A stretch of DNA of 64,000 nt. Source: Ruditapes philippinarum (taxonomy: Eukaryota). A program made the position numbers and the translations under genes. Position 1 is the stretch's first letter. Every line of letters starts with the position of its first letter. The stretch lies in contig NW_026859564.1 of NCBI RefSeq assembly GCF_026571515.1, positions 1 to 64,000 on the forward strand, written 5' to 3'. Of this stretch, positions 8,380 through 32,994 are shown piece after piece. The notes beneath the pieces are model-generated. The model saw nothing but the letters and a program-made list of their open reading frames with translations, had not been told where the DNA came from and made no database searches.

Positions 8380-8423
8380 AAAGGGGATAATATTTTCACG
8401 TTCTTCTGATTTGTCTTTTAATT

Positions 8424-10234: not shown

Positions 10235-10311
10235 CATAAAATAACAGAAATTTATTAAATGCTTCTCTTGACATGAATATTTAAGTATCAAATTTACTAA
10301 GTTATACCAGG

Positions 10312-10404
10312 TACATATTTACCAAACTCCGCGCACTGGTTACGCTACGGTCAGTATCTAATCCTGTAAGGGGAGATCACTGCGTAGGAGATTACATATT
10401 TACC
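10312..10404 (-). other. 69-bp insertion flanked by a 12-bp direct repeat that duplicates the splice donor
   Basis: TACATATTTACC at 10312-10323 and 10393-10404 (G|GTAAATATGTA on the minus strand). Confidence 0.65.
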
Positions 10405-11409
10405 TGAAATATTAGTGTCTGCATTGCCTGTAGACGTTGCTCTAGCTGCTTATGAGACAGTTTTGCACATGGTGCAGCAATAAAGCAAAGCTGCAGGATT
10501 ACTATGTGTGCACATTTCATAGTTGGATATGCCTTTTTTCAACTGTAAAAATATTTAAATCTCATAATATGTGGTATAATTTATTCTCAAATTGGCTAAA
10601 TAATCGAGCCATTTTGAGAATGAATAATATACATATATATTTTACGTCTTACGTTGCCTATATTTCTACAGAGTTAATAAAGATTTTGCCAAAATGAAGA
10701 AGATACTTTATTATATAATCAAGTAATGATTTAATATCTTCTAAAGATCTGGCATTAAACTATTAAAATCTTTTAAAAATATCATTATATTTATCATTAA
10801 GTATTAATGGCTCCTTTTCGGATTTAGAGTTCAGATCTAAAATACACGAGAGTTTCAAAAATATTATAAATGTAACAAAAAATAAAATTAGTGAAAATAT
10901 AAATAACGATGAAATATAAACTTATGTTTTACCTTCTAGTTATAGTAAAGCGAATCTGGACTTGATCTAACAGTGGTTATCACAATATCAAAGTAATACA
11001 TACAAAAAAATTTTCGAGTCGACGGGTCAAGTTAATAGCACTACTTGAGAAAAGTTAAGGCTAAAAATGTTTTGAGTTTCTTAGACATTTTTAAGTTTGA
11101 TCAAGTATGTATACGTATTTTCTAACCTTTTTTCAAGCATGTACATGTTTCTGTCATTGAAAATCTCTACTTTTATTGATATGTCTTTGCATTTTTTTAA
11201 GTTTATGTTTTACTTCAGAGATTTGTCCTCGTGTCTTTTCATTTTGAAAGTTACTTTGATAGTGAGTAAATTTTAGAGATGAAGTTTACTTACTTGTGCA
11301 CCGCACCGGTGGAATGTTTCACTCCATGTATCGTTCGAAGAAACGGTAGTGTATTCATGATGTTATATGTGTGTAGATGAATTGATGTTTTAATTATCTG
11401 CGTCATATT

Positions 11410-11470
11410 CATCATAATTATCATCATCATTATCATCTTCATCATCTTCATTATGATAGTCATCATCATT
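11410..11470. repeat. Imperfect (CAT)n microsatellite
   Basis: catcataattatcatcatcattatcatcttcatcatc... Confidence 0.8.
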
Positions 11471-12456
11471 ACTTGCCACGATAATTATTGAAATAATTAT
11501 AATAAAAATAAATTGAAAGCAGTTTATTTAAATCATTGTTCGACTCAATTATATTTTGTCACACAATACGTTTTTCAAATAGTAAAAAAAGCTCTTTCCA
11601 ACATAGATATAAAATGCTCGTTTCAAAATAAATAATTTAAAACAACGAAGTTTATGTGAACATATTGACGTCATTAGAGTCTTCGATTATTTCAATTTTC
11701 TAGCAAGTGGAATTTCTGCAACCTTGAACTACATATAACAAAGGCTTCAAAACAACTCTTTTATTACCAATACTATATGCGACTGAATATAAATATTATT
11801 TTGTTAAAACAAAGAAATTTAATATTTTCTGTTTAGGCCTAAAACACTTAAATCTATCATCCCAAATATGTGAGTACGTTAATAACTTTAAAGATGATCT
11901 TATTTTTTACATCCGACATTGGCTCATTGAACAAAGTAAGGGCTGAACCAAAATCAGCTTATCAACATGTAACATATTCATATGATAAGTGGGCAATTTA
12001 TCGTCACAATATTTATGTTGCACATTAACGTATAAAGTATTTTTGTTTAACATTGACATTAAAATGTATTCATGTTTTTATATTAGATGAGAGATAATCA
12101 TGTCATCTTGTAATGTCATAAGTTCTCCTCGTTTTCTCCCTTAGAAGCCACGTGTGTCAAGTCTACATCGTAATGTACTCGTACATTACAAAATAAACGC
12201 TTAAAACACTCCCTTTCCCTCCTGAAATGATTTTCTGCTTCTGTTGTGCTTTCTTAATTTTTATTTTCAGCTGTATCTAAGAACAAATTGCATCATGGAA
12301 ACAAGACATCTTCGCTGGATTCACATTTGTGACTGTTTACTTTGTTTCAGAGACAAGTGCTTATAGTAATTGTTATTCAGTAATGTCAATAAGTTCCTGT
12401 TAGTTGATTTCTCTTCTGATTGTCCGGAGAGAATTCAACCATGTGATGAATGATAT

Positions 12457-13007
12457 TTGAGAACCGTTCAATCCGGTGCTAGGGTGCCATGAGGGATGTT
12501 GCACTTTTCATTATCTATCACATACATGAGTCTGCAATTTTCATGTATTTTTTCTGTTTTTAATGCTTCGGGGAATCACTTTGTTGCCAGATGTTTATGT
12601 ATCAATCAGTTATTAAATTAAAAGATATGTTAACTGATCTGCATTTTGTCTCTTTTTCAAAATATAATTTTCATTGATTATATCTTATGAAACATACTTT
12701 ACTTCCGAGCTTAAGTCACGATTTTTGATAAAAGAAATACTCTTTCGACTGCTCGGAATGTAATCAGCCTTATGGGCTTTAGACATTTTGAAATCTTATA
12801 GTAAATGTATATTATTTAGGATTATCCGGAATACATTGTATTAAATGTTTTATTCAGCCATTGGACAAAATACTGCCAAAAGAAATCTAAAAATCTGGAA
12901 ACAAAGTGATCCCTCGGAAGCTTTAATCACAACAAAATTACGTGTAAATTGCATACACGGTTTGATCGAGTCTGTACATAAGGGATAATGAATAAGTGCA
13001 ACATCCC
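12457..13007. mobile_element. Putative MITE; related ends also at 20967-21051 and 52861-52895
   Basis: CCGGTGCTAGGGTGC..GAGGGATGTTGCACTT at 12473-12506 is inverted at 21003-21051 and partly at 12994-13007. Subterminal AGTGATCCCTCGGAAG is shared at ~12905 and 20967. Confidence 0.6.
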
Positions 13008-15646
13008 AAACTCAGTAAATAGTTTAAATCTAAATGTGTGTTATTCTATATTATCTTATCCTATTCAAAATAATAGCACATTAATCAGTATATGTTTGTT
13101 AATACTCGCGGTGTTTAATGCTTGAAAATTGTTGCTGTTGTTCAAAACGATGTACCGGAAGTTAATACGTGTTCATTAAATATTGTTACCGACAGTGTGC
13201 CATCGATAAAATATTTTCTCATGATGGTCCATTTCCATTCTCCTGAACCTCAACAAAGTTTCTTTGAAATATATAACCATCCGTGGTTAAGTACCCAACA
13301 CTTAAAGATGACAAAGCCAATTTAGATTTTCTTTCTAATTGCGCATACGTCGCGTTAAACTTTGTTTTCTTTTTATATATGGGTGTTTGGCATCCGTTTC
13401 ATTTTGTGTGTGACGTGTGTACGTGCGCGCGTGCGTGCGTGCGTATGTGTCAGAGCAATTATTATTTATTATTTATGTTGTTAGGCGCTTTAAAGAGATA
13501 TTTTGGCAAATTAATGTCAAAAATATTATAATGATATTTTGTACACGATAAGTCCCAGTATGAATGAATTTCTTTATACATTCTATATATTTTTGGTTTG
13601 TAGCGGAAATACATCTATATTATATTGAACGAAATTTATACGCCGTCAAAATTACTAGGTATGTTTAAAAGAAATCATGTGATTTGAACAAACCCTGCAA
13701 TATACAATTACAGATATTGTTTATATTGTATGATCGAAACAAGAAGTCTAGGTCATTCATTTCAGATATTCTTTTACGTTTCCAGAGAACACTGTGACAC
13801 CTATTGTGTAATCGAAACGCTCTAAAAAATCGGAAACCACCAGTTTATTTCTTATAAGGAGAAAAGTTTTGTTCCTGTGACTACCTGCTGTATTTATTTT
13901 GAGGACATTAACAGAATAAAGAATGAAAAAAAATAAAGATACAATGAGTGTTACGAAATAAGTAATTGGTTTAACACATAAAGATGTAAAAAAAAATTGT
14001 AAATTATTGATTTTAAGTGAAGCATCACACAGATATCAAGTCCAACAAACACCAGGTAAGAGATGCTGATAATGCCCGAAAACTTACACGAAGATACGGT
14101 GAAAAGAAACAACCTATATCCGAAAATCAGCATTTCTCTTTCAAAAGCTTAAAATAATGTATAAATTCAAAATTTTGGAAAGTTTAATATCATGTTTGCC
14201 TCTCAATATGGAACTTAGTTATACTTGTAAATACAACGAATTATTTTTTAAAGTCTCATAACAATGTTTTTACGAATACATTTATTAATGTTCTTTAAGG
14301 TACCCAGTTATTGTAATCACCTACGCATCAACCCTACTAGTTACATCTGCGGGTATTTTATATATTTTTTTTTTCTGTCCGATGTTTTATCATTTATGTT
14401 TTGTTTTACTATGCTTGCAAGCAGTAAATAATTATTTTACACACGGCTGTCATGTTACCAGTGTTACATCGTAGTTTATGTTGAGCAGTATACTGGCATA
14501 CGGTAGCTTGTAGCATAACACAAAAATAGATTTTTAAACCTGTGTTTTCATCTTTTCGGAGTTTTAGATAATAGAAATAAATATATTGGAGCAACGAAAA
14601 TGGTTTTGACAATTTCAGGTAAGATATTGCTCTGTGCTCTCTCTCTTATTATCACGTTTCTTATGTATTTGTTTGCTTTTATTGAATCGACTAATGTTTG
14701 TTTGTATCGCAATTATCTCTATAGCAAATACACTACCGGCAATTGAAATGGCGCCTACCTACGTTTGCGAAATGTACTGAAATTACACTCTGTTAAATTA
14801 AATATAACAAACTTACCATGGGGTAAATGTTTCATCATAAACCTTAAGGAATGCTAAATTTCAAAGATAATGCATACTGAATGTAAACATCAATTGACTA
14901 TTCAATAATTACTCTTTGACTATATAACTTTATTAACAGTTTCGGCTTGACATAATCAAAACTATTCTACATATTTTAAAAAAGTTATCGAAGTACTCAT
15001 TTAACATGTCGTAAGTTAACACAGTTTACTCTCGTCCTGAGTACTTAGTAGAATGAATACCTATTTGCAAATTAATGCATAAAAGTACTGTTTTAAAAGC
15101 TTAATTACAGAACCGCTTTAAAATTAGGAATCTTCTAAATAATGCTTTTAAATCAAAATTATCTAAATATTTTTAACACAACATTGTTTTGGTCTTAAAT
15201 ACATATAAAACAAAGATTAAAAGACCATAAAACAAGCATCGTTTGGCCATTGTTTATACAATTACTAGATTTTACTAGAAGGGTTACTCCGCAGTACATA
15301 TTACCATAGAGTGCATGCGCCAGAGATTTATCTCCCTTATTTAAATATCACTACTACATGACTATATCTGCCTTTTAAATGACATCATCATAGGTAGCAT
15401 ATCATGATAACATACCAATAACTATAGTAAAATGACGAATGTTTCACTATCGCGTACCTTCTTTTGTAACGTTAGTATATTCACTATGTTTAGGTTTTCA
15501 AGAATAGTTTGAACTCTATGTAGTTGATTCTATTCTCTATCATCATGACTTTTCGGACAAAATCAATATGCCTAGTCAATGATTCGATAACTTATAAGTA
15601 TACAGTAAGTATTTCCTTTCCTTTCCAAGAAGAAGACATGTAGTGA

Positions 15647-15916
15647 GAAATATTATACTTGCATTTGACATATTTCTAGCATCCTTGAAAAGTTTTGTTG
15701 TGGTTTACCTGAATGTATGGTCCAACAGATTCGCTAGACCAGATGTATGCTACAAGATCTGTCAGTGCTCGGCAACTGATTTTTTTTCATTCTTTTTACT
15801 AATTCACTTATATGATATTGGTTGTTTATAACATAAAATGTGAAACCGTTTTTATGAGTGAAATTAAAAATTAATTTCAATAAATTAAAACAAGTAAAGT
15901 CGCTTGATAAATTATT
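15647..15916 (+). repeat. DIRS element 5' direct repeat
   Basis: GAAATATTATACTTGC...GATAAATTATT; by eye identical to 20084-20354 except one T in a homopolymer. Confidence 0.93.
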
Positions 15917-15980
15917 CAGCTTTGGACAGTCAGACTGACCTGTACACTTATTTTAAAACCGGTTTTGTTTACAACGTGTT

Positions 15981-16745
15981 ATGGCTTCGGGCGATGAAAC
16001 TAACAGTTCCAGTATGAATAATACAGGTATACATGAACAATTAAATGTGATATTGTCGGAGCTTTCCAGTTTGAAGAAAGAAGTACACAATAACAACGTT
16101 TCTGTTTCTTCAGAAGTAAAACATTTAAAAGCTGAACAGGAGATAAAGTGGAAGTTCGAAGGTAATAAGCAGCAGTATTGTTTCAACAGTGAACTTGCGG
16201 ACATTGTTAAGCAGGCCTCGTGGGCTATTGAACACGGCAAATTTGAATATTGTGGTGACCAGCTGAAAGAGTTGGCTGAGAAGTTGCACGTTAGAAATAA
16301 AGACATAAGGATAGCAGATAGTTCCCCTGCTGGGTGGGATACGGTGCGTCAGTATAAGTGCAATCCTGTAGCTAGCGATAGCGACGATGAAGCCAAGATC
16401 AATAAAGCGGAAAATCGTGCACTTAAACGTAAACGTTCTTCCACTAAAGGGCGTGGCGCACGTGACATTGTGCGTCCTGTTGGTCCTAGTTTTCAGCAGC
16501 CATATTCTTCAGTACAAAGCGGGATGTCGGGCCGGGGACGTAATTTTCGTCCCTCATTTGCTCCAGTCTTGCCATACGGATACGGCTCCAACTTCGCTTA
16601 TGGTACCGGAAGCGGCTTCCACGGCGGCCCTGTCACCCCAGGGCCATGTTTTCATTGCGGAGAGAACACCCACTTCCGAAGAGATTGTCCACGAGCGCAG
16701 TCATCAGCAACTTCCGGTTTCGGACAAGCCACAGCAAGGAAGTAG
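15981..16745 (+). CDS. gag: DIRS gag-like protein
   Basis: 254-aa ORF with FKFEGNKQQY-like and IRIADSSPAGWDTV.QY...PVASDSDDE motifs, plus zinc knuckle CFHCGENTHFRRDC. Confidence 0.85.
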   Translation: MASGDETNSSSMNNTGIHEQLNVILSELSSLKKEVHNNNVSVSSEVKHLKAEQEIKWKFEGNKQQYCFNSELADIVKQASWAIEHGKFEYCGDQLKELAEKLHVRNKDIRIADSSPAGWDTVRQYKCNPVASDSDDEAKINKAENRALKRKRSSTKGRGARDIVRPVGPSFQQPYSSVQSGMSGRGRNFRPSFAPVLPYGYGSNFAYGTGSGFHGGPVTPGPCFHCGENTHFRRDCPRAQSSATSGFGQATARK

Positions 16746-18758
16746 TTGTCAAGATACAGACATTTCTATGAAAGATGAGTATGATTGTTCACGGTTTACA
16801 CATAAATATCATGAATATGAACAAGGTCAAAAGAATATTATTGTTAAGGGCAGATTAAAAAGTCATATTGATTTTTGGAAGAAAATTGGTTGTAATGATT
16901 TCATATTAGATATTATTGACAAAGGATATAAGATTCCATTGTATTCTCAACCAGTTAATGTTATTTGCAAAAATAATAAATCAGCATTATTAGAGCAAGA
17001 TTTTGTCTCTGAGGCGATAAATGATTTACTTGATAGACATTTGATAAAAAAAATGTTCGAAAATTCCCTATGTAGTTAACCCTCTTACCGTATCAGTTCA
17101 AAATTCAGGTAAAAAACGTCTTATACTTGACCTGAGAGAGGTTAACAAGCACCTGTGGAAGCAAAGTGTTAAATATGAAGATATAAAAATTGCTCTTTCC
17201 TTAATTAAAAAAGGGTGTTTTATGATAAAATTTGATTTAACAAGTGCATATCATTTTGTTCAAATATTTGAACCGCATACAGAGTATTTGGGTTTTAGTT
17301 GGAAAGACCAAGATGACAATGTCATATATTATAAGTTTTTAGTACTTCCTTTTGGTTTATCGTCTGCCTGTTATTTGTTCACGAAATTGTGTAGGCCTCT
17401 GATAAATAAGTGGCGTGGAGAAGGATTGCTTGTTACAATGTTTTTAGATGATGGATTAGGGTGCGCGTATTCATTTGATAATACTGTGAGGTTAAGTCAT
17501 ATTATAAAAACAGATTTACTTAATTCGGGTTTCGTACCTAATGCTACCAAATGTATATGGGAACCTGTACAGATATTAGAGTATCTTGTGTGTGATTTGA
17601 ATACAATCAATGGTACTATTTCCATTCCCGATCGTAGATTGTTAAAAGCACAAGAAACTATTGATTTTTTGATTGGCCTCATTAACAAGAAGGTTTAAGT
17701 TCAAGTAAGAAAAGTTGCTAGTGCAGTTGGTCAGTTTATTTCTATGGCGACAGTCATTGGCCATATATCTCAAATTATGACTAGATATTTAACTTTAGAT
17801 GTATTAAATGCACGGTATTGGGATGAGCGCATTTCACTCAGTGCAGAAAGTTATGAACAGCTTTTATTCTGGAAAGGTTACTTGTCGTGTATAGACAAGA
17901 AAGATCTTGAACGATCTCATATCTGTACTAAAGTAGTGTATTCTGATGCAAGTGACACAGTTTACGCTGGGTATTAGGTTAATACCTTAAATGGGGGTAT
18001 CCCATGGCGTCTGGTCAGAAACAGAACGCACCAAATCTTCCACTTGGAGGGAATTGGTTGCTGTCTACAGAGTATTGTTGGCTCTAGGACATTTCCTTAA
18101 AAGTCAATGTGTTAAGTGGTTTACTGATAATCAAGGGGTTAAGGCTATTGTTTTAAAGGGTTCTATGAAGCAAGAACTGCAAGAAATTGCTTATGCAATT
18201 TTTCAGTATTGCATGAAGAATGCTATTTCCTTAGAAGTAGAGTGGGTCCCCAGAACACAAAATGAAAAGGCAGATTTTTTATCGAGGTTGTCTGATTTTG
18301 ATGACTGGGGAATTTCGTTTGATATATTACAAATGATAACTGATCGTTTCGGTCAATTAGATGTTGATTGGTTTGCGTCATATTACAATGCTAAACTGAC
18401 TAAGTTTTATTCAAGATTTTGGAACCCAGATTGTTTTGGGATCGACGCTTTTTCGGAAAGCTGGGAAGGGCAGTTTGGGTTATTTGTACCTCCTATATCT
18501 GTTATTCATAGAGTAATTATGAAATTGGCTTGTGATCATGCACATGGAGTATTAGTTATTCCTTGTTGGAAGTCCGCCTTATTTTGGCCGTTTATATGCC
18601 CGAATGGGTGTTTCATAAAAGAAGTTGTAGATTGGTTTGATTTACCTACGGAAAGACATTTTTATATTAAGTGTAAAAATGGAAAAGGTATCTTTGGAAA
18701 TACCGATTTAAAATTTAGAATGTTAGCTTTAAAATTACAGTTTACTCAAGGGAAATAA
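16740..18758 (+). pseudogene. pol: DIRS pol (RT, RNase H, Dam-like methyltransferase), disrupted
   Basis: GRLKSHIDFW, KKRLILDLREVN, FDLTSAYH, VLPFGLSSA, FLDDG (RT). YSDAS, SSTWREL, WFTDN, EWVPRTQNEKADFLSR (RNase H). DVDWFAS..NAKL..FYSR, DAF, FVPP (MT). Frameshift in the A-run near 17050 and stops at 17696-17698 and 17975-17977. Confidence 0.9.
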
Positions 18759-18929
18759 TTAAGTTTGTATTTCTATTAAGTAATAACCGGATGGTCTCCC
18801 TTGCAAAAGAAAAATTGCGGTATCGCACATAGCAGTATAAGGGAAATAATTAAGTTTGTATTTCTATTAAGTAATAACCGGATGGTCTCCCTTGCAAAAG
18901 AAAAATTGCGGTATCGCACATAGCAGTAT
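18748..18929. repeat. 91-bp tandem duplication between pol and YR
   Basis: AAGGGAAATAATTAAG...CATAGCAGTAT at 18748 and 18839. Confidence 0.9.
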
Positions 18930-19106
18930 TGCTTTATACGGCGGGATCGCCTTTTGTATTGCTTGTTACAAGAACATAATGCTGTATAGCATTTTTTGTT
19001 ATATAAAATTACAACAATAACAAGAGATAATAATAACAATGCATAAATTTGAGTTTGCGCTGATTTATATTATTGTCATTTTTCTTTTTTACATTTATTT
19101 CTGCAG

Positions 19107-19970
19107 ATATACGCTGAAGATATTGAAGAACTGCCGGATGTTTTGGCGGGAAAAGTGGACTTGCTCCCGGACCTGTTGCGTAATTCAAGAGCACGAGGAA
19201 CGGACAAAAAGTATACTGGTGCATTTTTACGTTTTCAAAAATGGGCTCTGTGTAATGGGTTGGGGAGTAGGGATACTTTGCCTGCTAAAATACTGACAGT
19301 TGCAATTTATCTAGCATCTCTTGTTCAGACTGTAAATTCGCCAAGCCCCATCGTTTCAGCTTTTTATTCTATTAAATGGTTTCACGATATGTATGGATTA
19401 ATTTCGCCTACAGAATCAAAATTGGTTTTAAATGTTCTTGAAGCTAGTAAACGACTTCTGTCAAAGCCAGTTAAAAGGAAAGAACCTATTAATGTAGAAA
19501 TTATTAATAGTATTTATGACAGATTGTATGTAGAGTATAATATAAAAAGTCAACGAATTATCTGCGCTATTTTGATTGCATACGCAGGTTTTTTAAGAAG
19601 TTCTGAACTTTTAAAAATTCGTGTTAGAGACATAGTGTTTAATTCTACTTATATGTCTGTTTTCATTGAAAGTAGCAAGACAGATAAATACAGAGATGGG
19701 GCTTGGGTATTGATCGCAAAAACGGGTACAAAGTTATGCCCAGTTGCAAATGTTCAGAAATTAATATTGTGGGGAGAATTTCTGGATGATTATTTTCTAT
19801 TCTGTAATATAAGTGCAACAAAAACTGGATACAGAAGAAGGAAAATAAATAAGCCAATGTCGTATTCTAATCTACGAGATATTTTTATTGAAGTGTTAAA
19901 ACCTCATGTTGATAATGTTAGTAATTATTGTTTGCATTCACTACGTTCAGGAGCAGCGAGTGTCATCTGA
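19107..19970 (+). pseudogene. DIRS tyrosine recombinase, C-terminally truncated
   Basis: AGFLRSSEL (catalytic Arg), SKTDKYRDG and HSLRSGAAS (HxxR); a stop follows before the H/W and catalytic Tyr region. In-frame pyrimidine-rich AG acceptor at 19105-19106. Confidence 0.88.
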
Positions 19971-20083
19971 CTGTCTAGACGCTTACTCAAATACAGAATT
20001 TGTATTGCAACTAGTTGTTGTTTTATATTAAAACAGTTTGAGGTATAGTCATACTCTTATGTAAGGGAAGGAATGGTATAAAG

Positions 20084-20354
20084 GAAATATTATACTTGCA
20101 TTTGACATATTTCTAGCATCCTTGAAAAGTTTTGTTGTGGTTTACCTGAATGTATGGTCCAACAGATTCGCTAGACCAGATGTATGCTACAAGATCTGTC
20201 AGTGCTCGGCAACTGATTTTTTTTTCATTCTTTTTACTAATTCACTTATATGATATTGGTTGTTTATAACATAAAATGTGAAACCGTTTTTATGAGTGAA
20301 ATTAAAAATTAATTTCAATAAATTAAAACAAGTAAAGTCGCTTGATAAATTATT
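20084..20354 (+). repeat. DIRS element 3' direct repeat
   Basis: Copy of 15647-15916. Confidence 0.93.
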
Positions 20355-21269
20355 AAAATAAAATGTTAGCAAAGTAGAGTCACGCTTTATGTTGCAAAAA
20401 TTATCCCACAGATGTAAAACTTAATTCGTAACCTAAACATTTCAATTAAACAATCTACTTTTTTATTTACATTACAAGGTTCACGGGTGTCGAGTAGCAG
20501 ATCTACATTTTACATTTCATATTCAATATACACATGTTCATGTATTCTGTTTTACATCATGTACGACGATTCGATTTTTTCGTTGACATTTTTTAGGGAT
20601 TTAAAACAATTAATATCATTCAAGTAAACTATTGAAACACAAATAAAATGTCGGTCATGATATCATACTTGGTTAATACACAGAAGAGTCGTCATTTGTA
20701 AAATGTTAAATCTAAGACAAAACAGAAATTCGACGACAAATAAACGAATGAAGTGACTAACACATTAGAACATGTTTAAAGACCATTTTAGCTATGTCTA
20801 CAAATGTAATGAAAATATAAAATAAAATTTTTACCAACTTTCTTAACGACTGTCCGAAATGAAACATTCGAAAGTTTGGAATGTGATTTTCTGTAGTAGT
20901 AAAATATCATTGTTCATTAAACTTTTAATTTTAGGTCATAAAATGTGTTGAAATATCTGGGAAAAGAGTGATCCCTCGGAAGAATTAAAACAGCAAAATA
21001 ACAAGTGCAACATCCCTCACGCACCCTAGCACCGGCTTTAGCGGTACTCAATTCTCAACACTTAAAAATGCTGGATTTTATGATCCCAAAGGACCAAAAA
21101 ATATAACAACACTGAATTGAAATACGAGTCAACTTTTTACGGCTGTCACACAAAACTTGACACCTGATGTTGTGTTGTGTAATGAAGCATTGATTTTTAC
21201 CTGACAACGCTATAAGATAAGGATGCATCACTTTCTGGTAAATATATTTTACTATAAAATACGTTTGTC

Positions 21270-21538
21270 TGAAACTGTATTCCTATTTAATACTACATTG
21301 CTGGAAACATAACCTGGTGTTTAAACTACTAAACCAACCAGATTGTTGAAAAATTCGGTGATAAATCTTTTCTTAAAATCTACATGTATTTCAAGAATAA
21401 AATTGAAACTGTATTCCTATTTAATACTACATTGCTGGAAACATAACTTGGTGTTTAAACTACTAAACCAAATCAGATTGTTGAAAAATTCGGTGTAAAC
21501 TCTTTTCTTAAAATCTACATGTATTTCAAGAATAAAAT
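21270..21538. repeat. ~134-bp tandem duplication upstream of the TIR ORF
   Basis: TGAAACTGTATTCCTATTTAATAC... at 21270 and 21404. Confidence 0.9.
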
Positions 21539-21781
21539 CATTGACATATTTCTACAAAATATTTGAGACATGCTTTCCTTCAAGTAAAATAAGAATACGA
21601 ACATCTATTTTTCCTATGACAGGTTTTGTGTGAGTTTCTTTTTTTAAATATTGTACCTTTGAACAAAATAATAATAATAACTGTTTAAGAAAATTGATGG
21701 CATACTTTTCAACGTAATTTCAACGCTAAATAAATTTCTGTTATATTTCAGAGTATATTACACTTCGCAGTTGGGCTGCAA

Positions 21782-24163
21782 TTGAAGAATTTAGCAGGGA
21801 AATGTATACTAGAATTTGGAAAGTTTGTTTGCCACTTTGTTGTATTGTTTCATATTGTTTTAGACCTTAATTCGGATATAATTGTATGTCTGTTCATCAT
21901 ATCATTTAAAGTACATGAAATGCCGTATTATGGAACGTTTAATACAACGAGCTGGATTGATATATTTAGACAAATAGTTTACATCGTACTAATAGCAGTA
22001 TACTGGCCTTTGTGCTTTGGTTACGAGGGTCCTAATTTAACATCCATTTCCTTATATATAATTCTCAGCTGCGTTGAATGTTTTGGAGACAGTTGTGCTT
22101 ATCCTTTCATTAATGGATCAAATCAAAGCCATATTTTTAACAATTATCATGATATATGCACCATCATAGCTTATCTTACAAGCAAGTACATGTTTGGCTA
22201 TTATAGTTTAATTGCGTTTATATTCACTGTTTTCCACCAATATTGTCACTTGAGCTTTGTATTACCTGTCTGTAAGCAATTAGAACATGCTATTAAGGAG
22301 GCATATTTGAGTTTACAATCGTATATTGTTCTACGGCAAAGATTTTTGAAAAAGTATGGCAGAAGGAAAGTCTGCTGTTATTTTCTAATTTTTGTACTGA
22401 AAATATGTTCTATGTTGATGTTTCCAATAGGAATAATCAAAATGAACCAACAGATTTCCGTTATGTTCAGAGAATACGGTTGGCAACAGACGATAGATTT
22501 TTCAAATGAAAGTTTGTTTGATTATAGATCCACTAGCATGAACAACTATTCCCATCCATTGCTTTATAGATTTGAAAAGTGCATCCAAAACACCTGCACA
22601 ACAGCAATATCTTACAAAACAGAAGAAAGCTATTTAAGAATATGTGACATGAAGAAAGCCATATTAAACGAACATGTATTATTATCCGTTAAGGATATCA
22701 ATTGGGATAGGAGTAGTTTGTATGTTTGGACTTTTAACGATATACCCGTTTCTAAAATCAGTGAATTTAAATATGTTCAAGTGAAAAAACCACCAGATTT
22801 TTATTTGATTATAAGAAAAGTGAATACTTATGACTTTGGAACATATACACTTGTAAAACAAAGGCGTATCAATCTAAGAAATTGTGAAAATACGCCTTTT
22901 TACAGGCCGTACAAACATCTCGTACAAAGTGAGATTATATCGATAAGAGCCATAGCATGTACTCATCTCTTTGAACAGGATAGTAATTTAATCATCCATG
23001 CTTCTTTAGGAGAATTTATAAAACTGGATAATATAACCGTAGTTATGGAAAATAAAGATGGCTTCTATGAATTTCTAAGTGATTCCTTTTGGCAACGGAT
23101 TGAAAAATGCCAATGCGGTGCTTTGGCAAATTCAATATTCAAAACAGGTCAGTCAATGCAATTAAGTGATATTACGGAGCAATGGCTTGTAATAAAACTG
23201 CACATGTCATTTTGCGCCTGTCCTATCATATACAGGAACAAAAATGATATATTTTTGTACTGGCTGAATGAAATTCCCATGCATCATAAAATTTCTTTTG
23301 AACCGCTACTGACTGATCTTTTTTATCAAGAATTTCTTGACGATTATATATGGTGTGAACGTATGAACTACAGCTTAAAGACATTTTACAAATGCATTGA
23401 TACATTTCATTTTCACAAAAAACATTTTCGGAATGTAATTTTAAAACAATACGATATAATGCAACTAAAGGAATCTTCAGTCCTCTTCTGTCTTCTAATG
23501 GTCCACTGTTTGTGGTTTATGATTTGTCATTGCATTCTAGATAAATTATTATTTCATATATTTCATACACAAGTTAGAAATCTTATAAGTAATATGCATT
23601 TGTTGTCAACTAAGCCGTTTGAATTTGACATTTATCTATCCTACAGTGATGAATTTCCAAATGATAAAAGCTTCGCCGAAGATACAATTAAACATTACCT
23701 AATAAAATCCAAAGGGTACAAAGTTTGTGATTGTGAAAATGTAAAGCCCGGCCAACACAGACGTATAGCATTTGAGGAAAACATAACCAAAAGTAAATTG
23801 CTGGTTATACTTCTTTCTGCCGAATATTTAAAAAACGAGATATGTATGCAGCTGGAATATGAATATACTTTGTTATCTCTTATTGGAGCATCGAAAATAT
23901 CTAGAGACAACGTTTTAATACTTAAAATGGATACTTGTCCACGAGACGCTAGACCGTTGACTCAATTCCACGTGCTTGATTGGACTGACACGGTAAATAA
24001 CTTACGAACGGAGTCAGAAAAGAAGGAGAAACTGCACGAATGGTTGGTTCAACGTTTAAGAAAACCTGGAAAATTTAAAATGTTTTTAAATTCTTGGGTT
24101 CTGTGTCCTATCTTACGAATGATTGGCTTAGATTTGCAACCAGGGAATATTGAAAGACAATGA
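21782..24163 (+). CDS. Multi-pass membrane protein with an Ig-like ectodomain and cytoplasmic TIR domain (IL-1R/TLR-like); true start uncertain, possibly on an upstream exon
   Basis: 793-codon uninterrupted ORF with several N-terminal hydrophobic segments. Ig-like YVWTFND...YLIIRKVNTYDFGTYT (~22670-22860). TM SVLFCLLMVHCLWFMICHCIL. TIR box 1 FEFDIYLSYS (from 23618), GYKVC..., KPG, SKLLVILLSAEYL, CMQLE. AG acceptors at 21750-21751 and 21769-21770. Confidence 0.88.
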   Translation: MKNLAGKCILEFGKFVCHFVVLFHIVLDLNSDIIVCLFIISFKVHEMPYYGTFNTTSWIDIFRQIVYIVLIAVYWPLCFGYEGPNLTSISLYIILSCVECFGDSCAYPFINGSNQSHIFNNYHDICTIIAYLTSKYMFGYYSLIAFIFTVFHQYCHLSFVLPVCKQLEHAIKEAYLSLQSYIVLRQRFLKKYGRRKVCCYFLIFVLKICSMLMFPIGIIKMNQQISVMFREYGWQQTIDFSNESLFDYRSTSMNNYSHPLLYRFEKCIQNTCTTAISYKTEESYLRICDMKKAILNEHVLLSVKDINWDRSSLYVWTFNDIPVSKISEFKYVQVKKPPDFYLIIRKVNTYDFGTYTLVKQRRINLRNCENTPFYRPYKHLVQSEIISIRAIACTHLFEQDSNLIIHASLGEFIKLDNITVVMENKDGFYEFLSDSFWQRIEKCQCGALANSIFKTGQSMQLSDITEQWLVIKLHMSFCACPIIYRNKNDIFLYWLNEIPMHHKISFEPLLTDLFYQEFLDDYIWCERMNYSLKTFYKCIDTFHFHKKHFRNVILKQYDIMQLKESSVLFCLLMVHCLWFMICHCILDKLLFHIFHTQVRNLISNMHLLSTKPFEFDIYLSYSDEFPNDKSFAEDTIKHYLIKSKGYKVCDCENVKPGQHRRIAFEENITKSKLLVILLSAEYLKNEICMQLEYEYTLLSLIGASKISRDNVLILKMDTCPRDARPLTQFHVLDWTDTVNNLRTESEKKEKLHEWLVQRLRKPGKFKMFLNSWVLCPILRMIGLDLQPGNIERQ

Positions 24164-24430
24164 CAACGATGATGGTATATTTTATACTTACATGAAAACG
24201 TGCTTATTCGGGAGAATTATTTATTATGTAAGCATTGTCACTGCTTGTTGTGTAAGATAACAATTTTAATTCAACCTCTTATAAAAATATCGTTTTGTCA
24301 CTCTTGTGACAATTATGAAAACTGTTTGTAAATTTAGTATGACTGTATTATTGTATTAAGTTTTGGAATATCGGATAGTATATGATCATCTTATCAACTT
24401 ATTTAGACATATATACACCCTTATCGGTGA

Positions 24431-26249
24431 TTGTTATCCCCCGTCGATGAAATCGGGAGCGGGATATTGTTTTGGCGTTGTCCGTCCGTCCTTCCGTCCA
24501 TCCGTCCGTCCGAATTTCGTTTCCGGACTTGTTCTTTGCAACTACTGGCTGGAATTCAACGAAACTTTATGGGAATCATCAATATCATATCGTCAGCTTG
24601 TTTCGGTCAGACCCTTCTACTCAGTGTTATGGCCCTTGATTTGTTATGCAGTATGCATATAGGGTACAGATCGTTTTCGCGCTATTTCTCTGCTACTACT
24701 GGCTGGAATTCAACGAAACTTAATTGGAACCTTCAATACTAAGAGGAGATGCGCATATCATCGCCTTGTTCAGGTCAGACACTTTAACTCAGAGTTATTG
24801 CCCTTGATATGTTATTCAGTATAAATATAGAACAATATTCATTTCCGCGCTACTTCTCTTCAACTACTGGCTGGAATTCAACAAAACTTTATGGGAACCT
24901 TCAATACCAAGAGGAGATGCGCATATCGTCAGTTTGTTCCGGTCAGATAATTTAACTCAGAGTTATGGCCCTTGATTAGTTATGCAGTATGCATATAGAA
25001 CAATATTCGTTTCCGCTCTACTTCTCTGCAACTACAGGCTGGAATTCAACAAAACTTTATGGGAACCTTCAATACCAAAAGGAGATGCGCATATCGTCGC
25101 CTTGTCCCAGTAGACACTTAAACTTAGAGTTATGGCCCTTGATGTGTTTTGCAGTATGCAACCAGAGCAATAATTGTTTACGTGCTACTTCTCTGTAACT
25201 ACTGGCTGGAATTCAACTAATTTTTATGAGAACCTTCAATTCAAAGAGGAGATGTGCATATCGTCGCCTTGTTCCGGTCAGACACTTTAACTCAGAGTTT
25301 TGGTCCTTGATTAATTGCGAAGTATGGATATAGAACAATATTCGTTTCCACGCTACTTCTCTGCAACTACTGGCTTGAATTCGATGAAACTTTATGGGAA
25401 CATTCAATACCTAGAGAGAATGCGCATATCGTCGCCTTGTTCCGGTCAGACACTTAAACTCAGAGTGATGACCCTAGATTAGTTATGCAGTATGCATATA
25501 GAACGAAATTCGTTCCTGCGCTACTTCTCTGCAACTACTGGCTGGAATTCAACAAAAGTTTATGGGAAAAATTAATATCAAGAGGAGATGCGCATATAGT
25601 TGGCTTGTTCTGGTCAGAGTCAGACACTTTAACTAAGAGTTATGGCCCTTGATTAGTTATGCAGTGTGCATATAGAGCGAACTTTATGGCGACCTGCAAT
25701 ACAAAGAGGAGATGCGCATATCATCGCCGTGTTCCTGTCAGACACTTTAACTCATAGTCATGGCCCTTCATTAGTTATGTAGTATGCATATAGAGTAATA
25801 ATTGTTTCCGCGCGACTTGTCTGCAACTACTGGCTGGAATTCAATTAAACTTTATGGGAACCATTAATACCAAGAGGAGATGTGCATATTGATGCCTTGT
25901 TGAAGTTGTTCAGACCAGACCCTTCATTACAGAATTATTGCCCTTGATTACTTATGTATTATGCATATAGAGCAATATTGTTATTTCTTTGCAACTGATG
26001 TATTGATTTCAACATAACTTTATGGCAACCATGGATACACAAAGGCAATTTACATCTCATTGACATGTCCAGATATTACTATTTAACACAAAGTTATGGC
26101 TCTGTTATTGCCATGAATATTTATCAAGTACAAAGAATATTACTGTTTATGCCATTATAAATAAATAAATAAAGCCTTATGTCTTCAGTTGTTGTGTTAG
26201 TAATAACCAGTACTCGGTGGGGAATATAAATTCAACGAATTTGCTTGTT
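24431..26249 (+). mobile_element. Non-autonomous Helentron-type (HINE/pearl-like) element with an internal ~168-bp tandem array (~9-10 units)
   Basis: 5' TTATCCCCCG subterminal repeat, (GTCC)n microsatellite, core units with ACTACTGGCTGGAATTC at 24541, 24695, 24863, 25031, 25198, 25366, 25534 and 25826, then 3' CGGTGGGGAATA, a short AATTC..GAATT hairpin and a T-rich end. Confidence 0.82.
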
Positions 26250-28496
26250 GGTATTGCATAACTCTATGACGTTATAGTTGGAATTAATGTAATGGCTCTA
26301 CAGTGATGGGTAAACGACGATTAGTTGACCCAGTGACATGGAATAGCAGTAATAAATCGTTGCTGAGAATAAATAGTTTTCCTTTTTAATTAACCTCAAT
26401 GTCGAAAATATACCCTTACAAAGCAAATATGATAGTGAAACAATTACTTTCAGTTATGAAATGCATTTGATTATGATTTACTGGCCATTTGTGTTTTCCT
26501 CTTAAATATGTATTTTATTTCACATGAACAAAAAATAAAACCATTAAGTAAATTAAAACTATCAACAATTTTTATTCAATTCATGTTAACTTGGTTTACA
26601 CATCTTAAACTGTTCATAAAAAACGAAGTCTACAAATTAAACTTCCTGGACAAATTTTAATAATTTTTATCAGTGCTAATAGAGATTAATTAATGCATCC
26701 GCTGTATTAACATTGATAGAGATCACTGAAGAAATCTTTAATACTTATCTACAATGTTTAAAACATTTTCATTATAAATTAATGCATTATAACACATGCA
26801 TAAGACACATATTTATTGACAAAAATGAATTCAAAATATAACTTTATGTCATTCAATTGAAATTTTATTTATAATTTGTTTTTTCAACAATAAAGTATGA
26901 TGTATATTTATACATTGCAAACATGTAAGTTATGTAAGTTTCAATAGTCCTCTATATAGTTTAATATTCAGGTTAACGTAAGCGGTTCAACAAAATGTAT
27001 ATTGACACAATGTTTTATTATGGGACCGCTTAAATATTGTGCCACAAAAACCATCAAAAGCATTTTAAAAACATGCACTAAATAATCTTCTTCGTGTGCT
27101 TGTTCGGTACGTTTAGTTTGTAATATTTTTTGGAAGTAATTATATGTTTTTTATCTGCCTATGAGATCCCTAATACCTTATTCAAATGGAGGTGGTTTGA
27201 TATAAAACTTTCAAAAAGTGGCATGTCCACTTTCGTGTCCACTTTCACAGTGAATAACTGTTACTTAAAACAAGTAAGCACACAAAATAGTGCAACTTGA
27301 TGTATTTAAGCTTTTTGATTTCTTGTTTATTTATTTGTTCTTGGACTTAAATCTATATTTCTCAAAATATTACCATATAATGACTGATATATCAGTTGAC
27401 AATATTATATGTACACTTTTCTTGCATATCAGACAGTTTTTTTCAACTGTTTAGTGTTAACACCGATGCTAGAAAATTTTTATACATCCTTTTAGGAAGA
27501 TAAGTCACATGATTTAAATAGCGTCATTCCCTTGTGTCTTTTATGCAAGGAATTTCGTGCTTAGTATGCTCATTTTACCGTAATGGTTATGAATGAAGTT
27601 ACAATTTCATACGCTACCATAAGAACAAAGTATTAAATAAAAATATTACTTTTTGCAATTATTTTCCGATTTATAATTTTTATGCTATTTGCAAAAAGAA
27701 GAATCAAACACCGGCTGCCGTGACAAGCCTTCGGATAACTGTTCAGCTGAAAATTGACAAAGTCTTGTTAATGCCGCGAACAGTTACCCGATTTTTATAA
27801 TATAAAATAACATTTAGTGACATCATCACTGAAGCAATGCATAATGTACATGTAAATCTACTGTTGAAAATATTATTATGATTTATATTTACATGGCAAT
27901 ATCGACAAGACAAACAAAAGGGTGATCCGCTATTGAGATATTTTCTGGAATTCATTTATCCTGATTTGAGTAGAAAGGAAAGCTCAACTTGAGTGTTTTC
28001 ACTGATGATATGTCGTACTATATATCCGAAGAGAAAGACACGTTGCCCTCATATTTGTTAATTTTGTTTTATTTTGTTGATAGGGCGTATGAATACATTG
28101 TACGTTATATTAAATGACACGTTTCCTTATCTGCATTGTTATAACAAAATCGGGTATTTTTTATTTCATTAAACATGTAAATTAAACTTCTAATTTTGCA
28201 TTGTAGTTCATGTGAAAAAGTGTTGATCAAAACATAATTTGCATATTCATTCATAAATATAAAATGGACACAATCTTGAAATTTTGAATGATTCATGTTA
28301 CAGTCCTTCTGTCCTGTCGTCAGGCAAATCAGAAGAAAAAGCATGTCTATTGCCCATGACTCGACATCACAAATGTAAGGCCTAAAAGAGGGATGAGAAA
28401 AAGTATAAATACAAATTTTTTTCCTGGTTTGCTTAAACATCTTAAACCATGAATGTCATAGATTTTTGTACAACGAATTAATAGATGTATACAACA

Positions 28497-28611
28497 ATGA
28501 AATCTGCACACATTTTCCCTTAATAATATTTCTGTCCTGTACCATGATGAATCCTGTGGAACTAAAGAACTAAAATAGCAGTCACATGTAATGTCGTCAG
28601 TGCCAGTTCAG
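28497..28611 (+). pseudogene. Orphan degenerate signal-peptide exon of the SRCR gene family
   Basis: CAACAATGAAATCTGCACACATT...GAACTAAAATAGCAGTCAC...TTCAG|GTAAA parallels the first coding exons at 48955 and 54846 but has an early TAA; no partner exon found. Confidence 0.65.
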
Positions 28612-30255
28612 GTAAATATTAATTTAGTCTTAAATCCTCTGTTTAATTAAATCTGCGAGTGCTTGGTTCTTTTAAATGGCATTCTATTTTACAACTCTTT
28701 CTAGAATCGACCATATGATAAAGGAACAAATATAATTTTACTATAAATCTTATAAAAAATTGTTCAAAAAGTATACCTTTACACCATTTAGGTAACAACT
28801 CATTACGTTAAATATGTCAAAATGTGAAATTAACAAGAACCCTACTAATTGACAAATAATTAAAATGTCAAAAGTGTATAATTCAGAACATTCTTTGATT
28901 ATTTGAAGGCCTTGTTCAAGACTTTGAAATGATATACTGTAAAAGACTTTTTACGTCTGTGATTTATAAACATGTTAACAGCGATAACTGGTTCCGTTTA
29001 ACTCCCGCAAAGGACACGTGATGATCAGAACTAGTTAGTAAAATGAAATAAAAGGTACAAAACAATGTTGTAAGTTTGTCAAGGGCATACATGAAGTTGT
29101 AGATTGACATATAAAACGTTGGTAGGAAATTTAAACTCGGAAACATTATATAACATAATATAAAATGTTTTGCCTTTTTTCTCAAGTGGTGCTCTTGACA
29201 TGAAATTTTGTCGACTTAAACGTCTTTGTATTATTTTCTTATATTTACATCTGTACAAGGCTATGCAATGATAGATTTATACATTGAAGGAATCTTTTAA
29301 TGTAAGTTATTATGTGAATGTTTGCAGTAAATGGACATTTGGATAGTTATGCTATGTTTAGTTAATTGTAAGTGTTATACTGAACAGTAATATATTTATT
29401 TACATATTATACATGTATGTAGTCATCTGACAACAAACATTCCATTATTTGGAATTTGTAATGAAAACAGACAGTAGGATTTTGAAGCACAGCACCAATT
29501 AAAACTAAGATGTGTGAATGCTACAGCTGAATACTAGATTGACAGAATAGGACATGTTCTTAGACTATCTCTTAATTTTTGTTTTATAGACCTCTTACGA
29601 TGACATGTGAAAGATTTCCCAATTATCCCCTCTTAATGTGTTTAATGAATGAAAATGCAGGACAATTAGGGCTAAAATATAAGCATATTAGAAAGATGGA
29701 GTAAGGATGTTGACAAAATCTTGGGGAACTCTCAAATTGAGGGATGTTCGAATCTCAAATTACACAAAAAGTGATAACTGACTTAAATGGTATTTAAAAA
29801 AAACAATGGAGTTATTTTCATCATCACTCCTGAAGGAAATATATTTTGTCATCGTGAGACCAAAATACAGAACAGTCTTTTGGCGCTTAGTTATTTTATT
29901 CATCCCAGAACATAGTTATTTCCTAAATCTTTCCTAAATAAACCATTCGGATTGAATTGTTTTGTAGGGAAACCTGATGATTCATTACATATAGAATTAC
30001 GGTTTGAATGCAAGTGTTGTATTGCATTGAAAAGTGTACATCCTATATTTAATTATAGTTGAACAACTAAATCCTACTGTCTGTTGATAGCTTTAGTTGC
30101 TGTCTCAAGCTATGGTCAATTTTTAGTACCTTGTTTGGCTCAGCATTTATATTTATATTTACATTTATAAACCGAGGAAATATTATTATAAATACTAGCA
30201 AATAATGAGTGTACATATTTTTTACAGGTAAAACGATTTAGAAGGTGTTTCAACA

Positions 30256-32994
30256 ATGAAATGTAGACATATAATTATCCTACAATTATGTTTTATTTTT
30301 GTACTATGTGCCAAACTGTCTCGTAAGCAGCTAGAACAACGACTACAGGCAATGCAGACACTGATATTTCAGGTAAAAACTTTCCTGCTATAACTTATGA
30401 AATAAAATTTCAAACTAATATATTATGTTTAATTACTTTGTCTTATGATGCATACAACTTCACATTTTTAGAAATAAAAGTTGTGGTTTTACCATAACAT
30501 GTATTTTGCGTTATCTTTAAGATTTTACAAAAACAATAACAAGCTTAATACTTAGTTTAAGCCTCTTTTTCAAATGTTCCGTTTTAATAATTAGCGTCAA
30601 TTTAGTAGGAAGTTGGTAGCTAGTTGGATATTCGAATAACCAACTACCTACTATCTTGTGGTAGGTTATTCGTTATTCTCAACTATTTTACAGCTGGTAG
30701 TAATTATTCAATTCACTATTTCTAGATCTCGATGTTCGGACACATCATAGATTGGAACCTAATTGATTATTCGCGCGAATCCCCAGCTAATTTACCAGCA
30801 GGTAGTTCATAATTTAAGCTTAACATGTTTCCCTTCAAAATAAAATGTACTGTTATATGGATATGTACTAAATATGTCATGTATGTCGACCTGGGGACTC
30901 AGTTGGTTATTTGCTTGAATACCAACTACCTACTAGAAGACAGTTGGTAATTCGGATATTGCATTATATTCCTCTGAAAACAGAAAGTATTTTTCTGAAA
31001 CAAATATTACGGTTTTATAACGAGATATGTCTTTTCTATTATATGGTTATACCCCCTTCGCAATAAATCGACTAGGGGACTCAGATGGTTATTCGCAAGA
31101 ATCCCCAACTGCCAAGCAGAATATTGTAATTCTACAAACGGAAAACATCTTTTAATGATAAACGATTCAGTCATTATTTTATTTATATTGCTCTCAAGAA
31201 AACATTACAGTGACAATATGAAAGATAAAGATTGATTTGTGGTGACTATAAACTCTTTATTCATCTTTGAGTTGATATTCTAAATCTATTTTTTAAACAA
31301 TGAATACTGTTCAGGATAAAGAAGTCGATGTGGACCTCGATATACAGATTGGTTCATCTCTTGCACAAGTTATTTCAAACTAAAACTGAATGTTTTTGCT
31401 CATGTTTTTAAATGTCTCCCAAATTCAAAATTGATGCATTTAATTGACGTTTGAAATAAGTGTCTTCTTCAAAAATTGGATCAATGTTTACTTTATGAAA
31501 GTAAAATGGATATATATGAATATAGGTTGGTTATGAATGATGAACACTTTTTCATCATTATGATTTTTTACTTTTAAAATAATGAATTAATAGTTGATAT
31601 TTTCTTGAATTTGAATGTTTTATGCAGTAAAAAGAAGCAGTCAAACGGAATCTGCAATTTTCATTATCTGCGTGTTTTGTATCAAGTGTGTTATCAAGCG
31701 AATTAATGTATTACAGAACTAGATATCTTAAGGTATTTTATGGTAAATGGTTTCGTTTTTTATTTAAACGTGTACATATGTGTTTTGATAATTTACTGCA
31801 TAGTACTGCAACGTGCGTTATTCATGATGCTAAATGTCCCTGTATCGATCAGTTTATTTTATGATTCAGTCATTCTGTTTGTGTTTCATGTTGTATTTGG
31901 TAACAACATGTTTTTTTAAAAGTTATTTTTTCAACACATTTTAGCGCTTAGATAAATAAATCTTTCTGCATATGTTTTTTCAGGATGCGCAAATCATGAA
32001 AGAAGGGATCCGTAACAATGCTGAAGGTATCAAAACGTTAGCTGATAGCATGAAGAAACATTTTGATTCCCTTCAAGAGACCTTATCAATTCCTAGGAAT
32101 ACTAAGACACCTAATGCGAAACGACCAATCGGAGAATTACAATACGACCCTAAGCCACAAATCAACCAGTCAGATATCAAAAGATTGCAGCAAGCATTTA
32201 AAGAACTCAAAATGCATTCATTGGCATTGCAGGTTAACACATTTAATCAGTTGGAAATTGCACTCATTGAAAAACAAGAACTGTTTATGAAAAATATTTC
32301 TATATATCTTGCAAATATGGTGTCCAAATCGAACACTGAACTGAGTGAAACTTTGATATCCAATTTACAAAAATTTGCTTCCTGTACCGAAAAAGTTCAA
32401 GGAGGTATAACAGAACCACCATTGGCTGCATACAGTCAAATTATAAAGAAGGTTGAATCAGTTTTGGAAGAAGTGATTAAAGGACAATCAATGATATCAG
32501 ATCGTCTCTCGTCATTGAATACCCATCAAACGAATTCAGAGAACAAGATCGCAGCTAGCTGTTTCAACGTAGTTTATGCACAGAAACCTGATTTTGAAGG
32601 TGTACATGACCATAAATGCTATAATATTAGTGCACAGCCAAGGAAGAAAGTGACTTTTCATTGCAACAATAAAAATATTCGACTAGGTGATGCAATAATT
32701 ACGGACGTTGCCGTTGAGGGACGTATTGAAGTCAGATATAATAATCATTGGGGCACTGTATGTGATGATGGTTTTGATGAGCAAGATGCTATAACCGCAT
32801 GTAGGTCGGCCGGATTTGCAAGAGGTGTAGTCGAAAATAGAGTCCCTGCAGGGTCTGGACAAATTTGGCTTTCGTATCTTGGTTGCAATGGTGAGGAGTT
32901 CGATATATTTGATTGTAGCAGAAACCATGGTATTGGACATCATCAATGTTCTCATTCCGAAGACGCTGGTGTTAGATGTTTTTGGTTGCCTTAA
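30256..32994 (+). CDS. Secreted coiled-coil/SRCR protein copy 2 (exons 30256-30372, 31984-32994)
   Basis: Signal-peptide exon MKCRHIIILQLCFIFVLCAKLSRKQLEQRLQAMQTLIFQ, phase-0 GT-AG intron, canonical 6-Cys group A SRCR (EGRIEV..WGTVCDDGFD..CSHSEDAGVRC). Confidence 0.92.

Follow-up and report, generated by a model that had tools for sequence, protein, structure and literature searches.

Can a TIR-domain receptor of a bivalve carry a multi-helix membrane module at its N-terminus, so that both ends of its outer region are tethered to the membrane? With few exceptions, the passages cited here describe animal TIR receptors as single-pass proteins. A locus of the clam Ruditapes philippinarum raises this question. 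It lies in a stretch of 64,000 nucleotides of contig NW_026859564.1 that was analysed as a whole (‘the window’) and to which all coordinates refer; residue numbers (aa) refer to the encoded protein.

Gene structure and transcripts

The forward-strand frame at this locus is open from stop to stop over 809 codons (21734-24163), as compared with 163 codons for the longest open frame across 20 shuffles of the window. Its product is an 808-residue R. philippinarum protein (100% match) that is labelled by NCBI as uncharacterised (LOC132757038 / XP_060604200.1, here P0002). An earlier note on this DNA had described a single uninterrupted reading frame beginning at 21782; the frame is indeed open from there to 24163, but position 21782 opens a TTG codon, and the true start is an ATG at 21223, on the far side of an intron (Table 1). 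The main exon holds 803 of the 808 codons and the upstream exon the other five, and an in-frame stop at 21202 lies upstream of the ATG.

Two contigs (X1 record 5 and X15 record 9), from two runs in two different studies, splice out the intron at 21238-21751. Both start on the window at the AG at 20933-20934 and align through 21236/21237; they carry, respectively, 88 and 104 additional 5' bases that have no match in 10000-29999, and there is at least one further 5' exon beyond the upstream exon, outside that interval. The sequencing runs behind these contigs have no RNA record (4 of the 24 listed runs were compared with the window), and their source is probably processed RNA, because the intron is cleanly missing. 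Since the spliced contigs enter from upstream exons, the hydrophobic N-terminus is part of the transcript; a transcript starting downstream of it, which the earlier note had set in advance against its own reading, was not seen. The main exon is covered by pieces from X1 (21751-22071, 22042-23190 and 23526-24343) and from X15 (21784-22127, 22116-22491, 22547-22966, 22947-23629 and 23627-24491), and among the pieces listed (16 of about 1710) none joins the N-terminus to the TIR domain. Some of the pieces diverge from the window sequence by 3-6% and contain gaps; other alleles or other gene copies may be their source. Raw reads, sampled at about 4% of X19 and about 6% of X21, covered the coding exon to depths of 0-1.4 and 0-0.08, respectively.

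Table 1. Features of the TIR gene and of its predicted product, in window coordinates.
Feature	Position	Strand	Basis or remark
Upstream exon	20935..21237	+	5' UTR and first five codons, ATG 21223; agrees with P0002 start
Intron, GT..AG	21238..21751	+	absent from both spliced contigs
Main coding exon	21752..24163	+	aa 6-808 and stop; spliced translation 808 aa, ends as P0002 does
Hydrophobic segment aa 24-58, one helix or hairpin (predicted)	21806..21910	+	hydropathy 1.5-2.1, three homologues
Membrane-module core aa 76-176	21962..22264	+	two clear and two weaker predicted helices; Mercenaria conservation
Polybasic patch aa 200-211, predicted cytosolic	22334..22369	+	charge bias
Predicted membrane helix aa 213-235, inside to outside, signal-anchor type	22373..22441	+	hydropathy 2.43, 2.61, 2.33 (three proteins)
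Predicted extracellular or lumenal region aa 236-581, 346 aa	22442..23479	+	no hydrophobic peak, 4 sequons
Likely I-set-like Ig domain aa ~305-402	22649..22942	+	sub-cut-off Pfam matches in both copies, PDB matches
Possible second, membrane-proximal Ig-like domain	23213..23470	+	C493, W509, Y551-x-C553, by eye
Predicted membrane helix aa 582-602, outside to inside	23480..23542	+	hydropathy 2.35, 2.72 (two copies)
TIR domain aa ~628-775	23618..24061	+	Pfam above cut-off; 144/155 identical between copies

Several smaller features of the locus were also recorded. Near the start of the main exon (21752-22071) both spliced contigs exceed the window by a net 3 bases, and a second gene copy (P0003, below) has one additional residue, an in-frame variation in length. 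The 5' UTR exon contains a highly abundant repeat at about 21000-21174, with a further copy at about 12890-13010, and five short upstream ORFs, all of which close before the main ATG; the intron holds a tandem duplication of about 134 bases (approximately 21270-21540, by eye). An out-of-frame ORF of 22 codons at 21802-21870 (+) resembles a signal peptide followed immediately by a stop, and is probably due to chance. Just 3' of the gene (about 24530-26300) is an array of similar repeat units of about 170 bases that is abundant in reads.

Genomic surroundings

The TIR gene is located inside an immune-type gene cluster. Related long exons with a helical region are found at 5277-6146 (-), 31960-32994 (+), 49815-50696 (+) and 55769-56680 (+), with a shorter relative at 39042-39530 (+), and four of these exons encode an SRCR domain at the C-terminus (E 1e-17 to 1e-21). 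A DUF4559 exon is present at 59378-59986 (+; E 3.7e-10). Several frames at 15957-19970 (+), covered by X1 contigs, encode a zinc knuckle, reverse transcriptase, RNase H, Dam-like methyltransferase and tyrosine recombinase, an element that we take to be a DIRS-like retrotransposon; two overlapping frames at 7768-9482 (-) encode a reverse transcriptase and a GIY-YIG domain, presumably of a Penelope-like element. The first 1900 positions are very AT-rich and homopolymer-heavy, and look like a low-quality contig end.

Homologues, conservation and coding status

Queries corresponding to aa 60-620 and aa 560-808, searched against proteins of 444-1416 aa (at E<=1e-5 for aa 560-808), returned two Ruditapes proteins only. 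The second of these, LOC132714858 (P0003), is an intact copy on another contig, 77-80% identical overall to P0002. A search of aa 62-628 against 1.84 billion cluster representatives gave two matches, P0003 and an uncharacterised 376-residue protein of Mercenaria mercenaria (XP_045157018.2, P0004; E 3.7e-38), which is collinear with aa 41-346 (33% identity, 104/311, E 1e-43) and has, as does the Ruditapes protein, Met-His-His at its N-terminus. None of 160 candidates for shorter relatives (30-205 aa) qualified, the range of 206-443 aa being covered by the representatives search only, and a metagenome scan gave 110 pattern matches and zero relatives. The homologue set used below is thus these three proteins, whose accessions found no mention in a literature search.

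Clear orthology to a characterised receptor, the second result that the earlier note had set against its own reading, was not found; the relatives are two uncharacterised venerid proteins. The note's suggestion of a possible, poorly characterised molluscan family stands as regards the lack of characterisation, but ‘molluscan’ is too wide, because relatives were found only in Veneridae. On present evidence, the relatives are confined to that family, and the full architecture with its TIR domain to Ruditapes.

A skeptical interpretation of the locus is that the N-terminus represents chance read-through of AT-rich non-coding DNA, or that the gene is a decaying pseudogene. Frames in AT-rich DNA appear hydrophobic, and counts of hydrophobic peaks are accordingly weak as evidence: at least four peaks occur in 14 of 497 chunks from the six frames of the window, and shuffled versions of the first 240 residues reach four peaks in 123 of 500 trials, which renders a peak-count test uninformative. 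Because AT-rich frames look hydrophobic by chance, the case for a membrane module rests on conservation. The alignment of aa 61-212 to the Mercenaria protein scores 252, as compared with a maximum of 65 among shuffles (0/500 as high), and aa 61-135 and aa 136-212 each separately outscore all 500 composition-preserving shuffles; the similarity of aa 1-60 is not significant (47/500 shuffles equally high). The two Ruditapes copies have diverged at about 19% of residues with both frames open; in simulations of neutral substitution to the same 19% difference, every one of 1000 runs acquired a stop (mean 11.9). Identity between the copies is unevenly distributed: 144/155 in the TIR domain (93%), 151/180 in aa 61-240, 132/160 in aa 241-400 and 120/178 in aa 401-580 (67%), with the last of these and the helix that follows it (31/45) being the most divergent parts. 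The low raw-read depth and the degenerate TIR boxes described below might be taken to favour an artefact. However, the conservation in Mercenaria, the two open copies, the spliced transcripts and the contrast between the TIR domain and aa 401-580 largely refute that explanation, which we consider very improbable, and argue that the hydrophobic N-terminal 240 residues are coding.

The same comparison bears on the history of the gene. The Mercenaria protein, the sole homologue outside Ruditapes, is without a TIR domain and without the second half of the outer region, and the query of aa 560-808 matched no protein beyond the two Ruditapes copies under the limits given above. Both observations would be expected if the TIR domain were a recent addition, within the Ruditapes line, to an older multi-helix and Ig-like protein of the Mercenaria type, with no venerid family of such receptors. 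The Mercenaria protein, however, breaks off partway through the Ig-like domain, short of its F-strand motif, which looks more like a broken frame or gene model than an evolved terminus. A young fusion therefore appears rather unlikely to us; it is a question of origin, and does not conflict with the same receptor function.

The TIR domain

The C-terminal TIR domain, which the earlier note had recognized, is secure at the level of profile matches: Pfam TIR_2 (PF13676) scores 42.7 bits (E 9.4e-11) against a cut-off of 28, and PF01582 is also above its cut-off (32.1 bits). By these matches the product is a TIR-domain protein. The core strands of the fold are kept, as are S694, Y697 and E707 (the Ser-x-x-Tyr and Glu landmarks), and the PDB matches (E 0.002-0.003) are exclusively to IL-1RAcP and a SIGIRR TIR.

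The motifs that define TIR groups are only partly retained. In the available text of PMC7075850, the extended Box 2 of group 4 is given as E-x3-G-Y-x-L-x-I-x-x-R-D-x-x-P-G; in the clam protein G660-Y661 and P671-G672 are kept, the leading Glu and the Arg-Asp are missing, and the motif is one residue shorter. In P0003, the BB loop has a Leu in place of the Pro. Of the group-3 Box 2 (C-x-H-x-R-D-F-x-x-G) the Cys and Gly are present, and the His, Arg, Asp and Phe are missing. The Phe-Trp of Box 3 has apparently been lost as well, with Leu766-His767 in its place (by eye, past the end of the HMM alignments); W749, which corresponds to the Trp that group 4 has at the end of strand E, is kept. Judged by motifs, then, the TIR domain falls outside both the IL-1R and TLR groups and resembles the IL-1R group.

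The strand-B region serves as a site of TIR dimerisation and adaptor binding, according to PMC7075850. Because the Arg-Asp of Box 2 has been lost at this site, recruitment of MyD88 may be altered or weak. Glu707 aligns with the conserved TIR glutamate, and is not diagnostic of NADase activity; the same source reports the glutamate in more than 70% of TIRs, and not as a predictor of catalysis or NADase activity.

The outer region

Between the last N-terminal helix and the helix that precedes the TIR domain lies the loop that the earlier note had estimated at about 345 residues with N-glycosylation sequons, and which the present analysis places at aa 236-581 with little change. Three of its four sequons (257, 270 and 432) are kept in the second copy.

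The evidence for an Ig-like domain in this region is weak but consistent, and points to one such domain. The segment at aa ~330-373 corresponds to the C-to-F strands of the Pfam I-set profile and scores 15.1 bits (E 0.024) where 23.7 would be the cut-off, with E ranging from 0.024 to 0.18 according to the stretch submitted and below the cut-off each time; the same region of P0003 matches Ig_3 (E 0.043) and I-set (E 0.062), both again sub-cut-off. The Ig-like motif of the earlier note is thereby seen as a signal repeated in both copies, but every one of its Pfam scores falls short. All three PDB matches to the I-set stretch at E<=10 are to OPCML, contactin-5 and contactin-6 (best E 0.053), and a fourth match, obtained from a profile, displays the same W...D-x-G-x-Y pattern. 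In the putative domain a Leu replaces the F-strand cysteine, and the likely B-strand position is occupied by Val.

A second, membrane-proximal Ig-like domain is possible. C493, W509 and Y551-x-C553 are invariant between both copies, at a spacing that we take to be the pattern of a membrane-proximal Ig domain; the stretch gave no Ig match in Pfam or PDB searches. A GAF match at aa ~423-503 (E 0.011-0.08) was rejected, as the second copy does not show it. In agreement with the earlier note, no LRR family was matched in either copy in Pfam at E<=10. The ESM features of the whole protein lie nearest to IL-18R1/IL-1RAcP clusters (score 0.89, 186/256 shared), a result at the level of a lead only.

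The predicted N-terminal membrane module

Hydropathy analysis (Kyte-Doolittle, 19-residue window) identified peaks of at least 1.6 at aa 37-55, 76-94, 158-176, 216-234 and 582-600, and none within aa 241-580, in keeping with the several hydrophobic segments and further transmembrane segment that had originally been noticed. The four N-terminal peaks (the first at ~aa 25-55) occur at aligned sites in all three homologues, and the peak at ~aa 582-600 is present in both Ruditapes copies. Weaker helix candidates are found at aa 102-118 and aa 140-156 and as a second arm within aa 24-58, so that by hydropathy alone a total of 5-8 membrane helices is predicted. Polar residues of the module (D75, R78, E114, D139, K150 and H171) are conserved.

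The predicted orientation of the protein follows from its charges. Basic loops lie on the cytosolic side of membranes (the ‘positive-inside’ rule), and aa 177-212, which include the polybasic patch already described in the earlier note, contain 9, 11 and 5 Lys and Arg residues vs 2, 2 and 1 Asp and Glu residues in the three proteins; the 20 residues past the following helix show no such excess. Because aa 177-212 are basic, aa 236-581 are predicted to lie outside and the TIR domain inside. Hydropathy in three homologues and the distribution of charge thus favour, as a prediction, the earlier proposal of a non-canonical TIR receptor with an ectodomain anchored at both ends. In all three proteins the loop at aa 60-73 carries a sequon (near aa 69-70), which fits an outside location, whereas the simplest arrangement of hairpins puts this loop inside.

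Internal signals take the form of a basic stretch with a hydrophobic helix after it, as is seen here, and the rest of the protein resembles an IL-1R-like receptor. It might accordingly be imagined that the N-terminal 235 residues are a long leader that is cut off after the last helix to leave an ordinary single-pass Ig-TIR receptor. We regard this as improbable: with 33% of residues identical between genera and polar positions fixed, the constraint is greater than a disposable leader would require, and no shared small-residue cleavage site is visible (by eye) past the helix.

The module gave no informative match to a family or structure in Pfam, NCBIfam, PADLOC and structure searches. The NCBIfam and PADLOC matches were weak ones in the TIR region together with drrC, which is taken as chance, as are the weak matches to UPF0150, MT-A70, MCSS, SEN1_N, drrC and EF_HD. 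An ESM feature search with aa 60-300 returned no match, which shows neither novelty nor absence. AlphaFold2 models of the full-length protein (pLDDT 30.8) and of the N-terminal 243 residues from a three-row alignment (pLDDT 36.5) were unusable, and a Foldseek search with the latter, without a match at E<=0.001, is uninformative given the quality of the model. No internal repeats were detected among helix pairs or among outer segments (best probability 3.5%).

Comparison with known receptors

The closest parallel is the IL-1 receptor family (IL-1R1, IL-1RAcP, IL-18R1 and SIGIRR; TIR group 4 in the available text of PMC7075850), with which the clam protein shares the order of Ig-like domain, membrane helix and TIR, the Gly-Tyr before strand B and the Pro-Gly of the BB loop, and to which its best PDB and ESM neighbours belong. 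There are also differences. Members of that family are single-pass and restricted to jawed vertebrates, as far as that text goes, whereas the clam protein has at least four extra N-terminal hydrophobic segments (five strong segments in all, by hydropathy only). They have one or three Ig domains; in the clam protein one weak, repeated I-set signal is seen, and a second domain is possible. The likely Ig-like domain is without the F-strand cysteine, Box 2 has lost its Arg-Asp and Box 3 apparently its Phe-Trp, and a single exon holds nearly all of the coding sequence.

Invertebrate ‘Ig-TIR’ proteins of cnidarians, echinoderms and oyster also combine Ig and TIR domains, with function untested; an N-terminal multi-helix module is not described for them in the available portions of the reports (PMC5094078, bioRxiv 10.1101/2025.07.17.662885, PMC4346834), and no sequence link to the clam protein was found. 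Bivalve Toll-like receptors, a family that is expanded in Manila clam, likewise have a helix and a cytosolic TIR, but contain LRRs, whereas the clam protein has neither LRRs nor the group-3 His-x-Arg-Asp-Phe. A survey of Manila clam TLRs, in the part available, assigns a single-pass helix to all its genes (PMC9720247). An Aplysia TLR with three helices is on record, and looks like an end-to-end fusion. The ecTIR-DC families (Gerdol et al. 2017) are, according to excerpts of citing papers, widespread in invertebrates, whereas relatives of the clam protein were found in Veneridae only.

A precedent for a lineage-restricted multi-helix module on the N-terminus of an animal immune receptor is provided by anthozoan (anemone) NLRs, for which 3-5 N-terminal transmembrane segments are described in PMC5094078; these belong to another receptor class, and no homology is implied. 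A literature search that did not extend to the main survey of bivalve TIR proteins (Gerdol et al. 2017) or to the supplements of papers found no description of a multi-helix, Ig and TIR architecture; further background on invertebrate TIR receptors was taken from excerpts of PMC10279657, PMC6836662, PMC6321704, PMC9334734 and PMC8905726.

A proposed role for the receptor

Beyond what is established (the structure of the gene, its splicing, the TIR domain, the intact paralogue and the presence of a conserved N-terminal module in a second venerid), the reading that we favour, and hold with about even confidence, is that of a doubly anchored, IL-1R-like membrane receptor of a venerid clam that probably acts as a modulating co-receptor for Toll/IL-1-type signalling. 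Its outer region, which probably contains an Ig domain, is predicted to sit between the N-terminal helix bundle and the pre-TIR helix. There would be no cleaved N-terminal signal peptide; a permanent membrane module, inserted as helical hairpins, would take its place and would fix the location of the receptor or its assembly with partners, and the helix after the basic patch would carry aa 236-581 outward. The outer region may bind a ligand or a partner receptor, because divergence is fastest in its membrane-proximal half and the TIR domain is conserved. Such binding would place the TIR domain beside partner TIRs, where it would more likely modulate or dampen signalling than recruit MyD88 directly, given that the Box-2 Arg-Asp and apparently the Box-3 Phe-Trp have been lost and that the BB-loop Pro is changed to Leu in P0003. 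The co-receptor role is likely, with this loss of motifs as its sole basis.

The division of labor might also be reversed. In a polytopic receptor class with 6-8 helices, the N-terminal helices would themselves be the working part (a channel or pore, or a sensor of lipid or damage) that switches on a TIR domain without the usual MyD88 surface, possibly an enzymatic one that cleaves NAD+, and the doubly anchored Ig-like loop would be accessory. Polar residues inside the helices are kept across two genera, the module is as conserved between Ruditapes and Mercenaria as the Ig region (59/180 vs 37/105 identical residues), Glu707 is retained and the adaptor-binding Box 2 is degenerate, all of which suit this arrangement. 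The module, however, matches no fold or family, the nearest TIR matches are of the IL-1R family and not SARM1 or plant proteins, and the glutamate is too common among TIRs to predict catalysis (PMC7075850, in the part available); we consider such a receptor quite unlikely.

Significance

The protein would be an undescribed variant of the IL-1-receptor/Ig-TIR design, judging from its sequence, whole in one species and partial in one other venerid; because this distribution is narrow, its general importance is limited. The gene should be easy to clone and to test, because it is compact (with nearly all of its codons in a single exon) and comes from a major farmed clam. Its membrane module of 240 residues is a protein family without annotation and, if the reading proposed here is true, a doubly tethered Ig-TIR receptor that is transcribed and selectively maintained would add an architecture to those of innate immunity.
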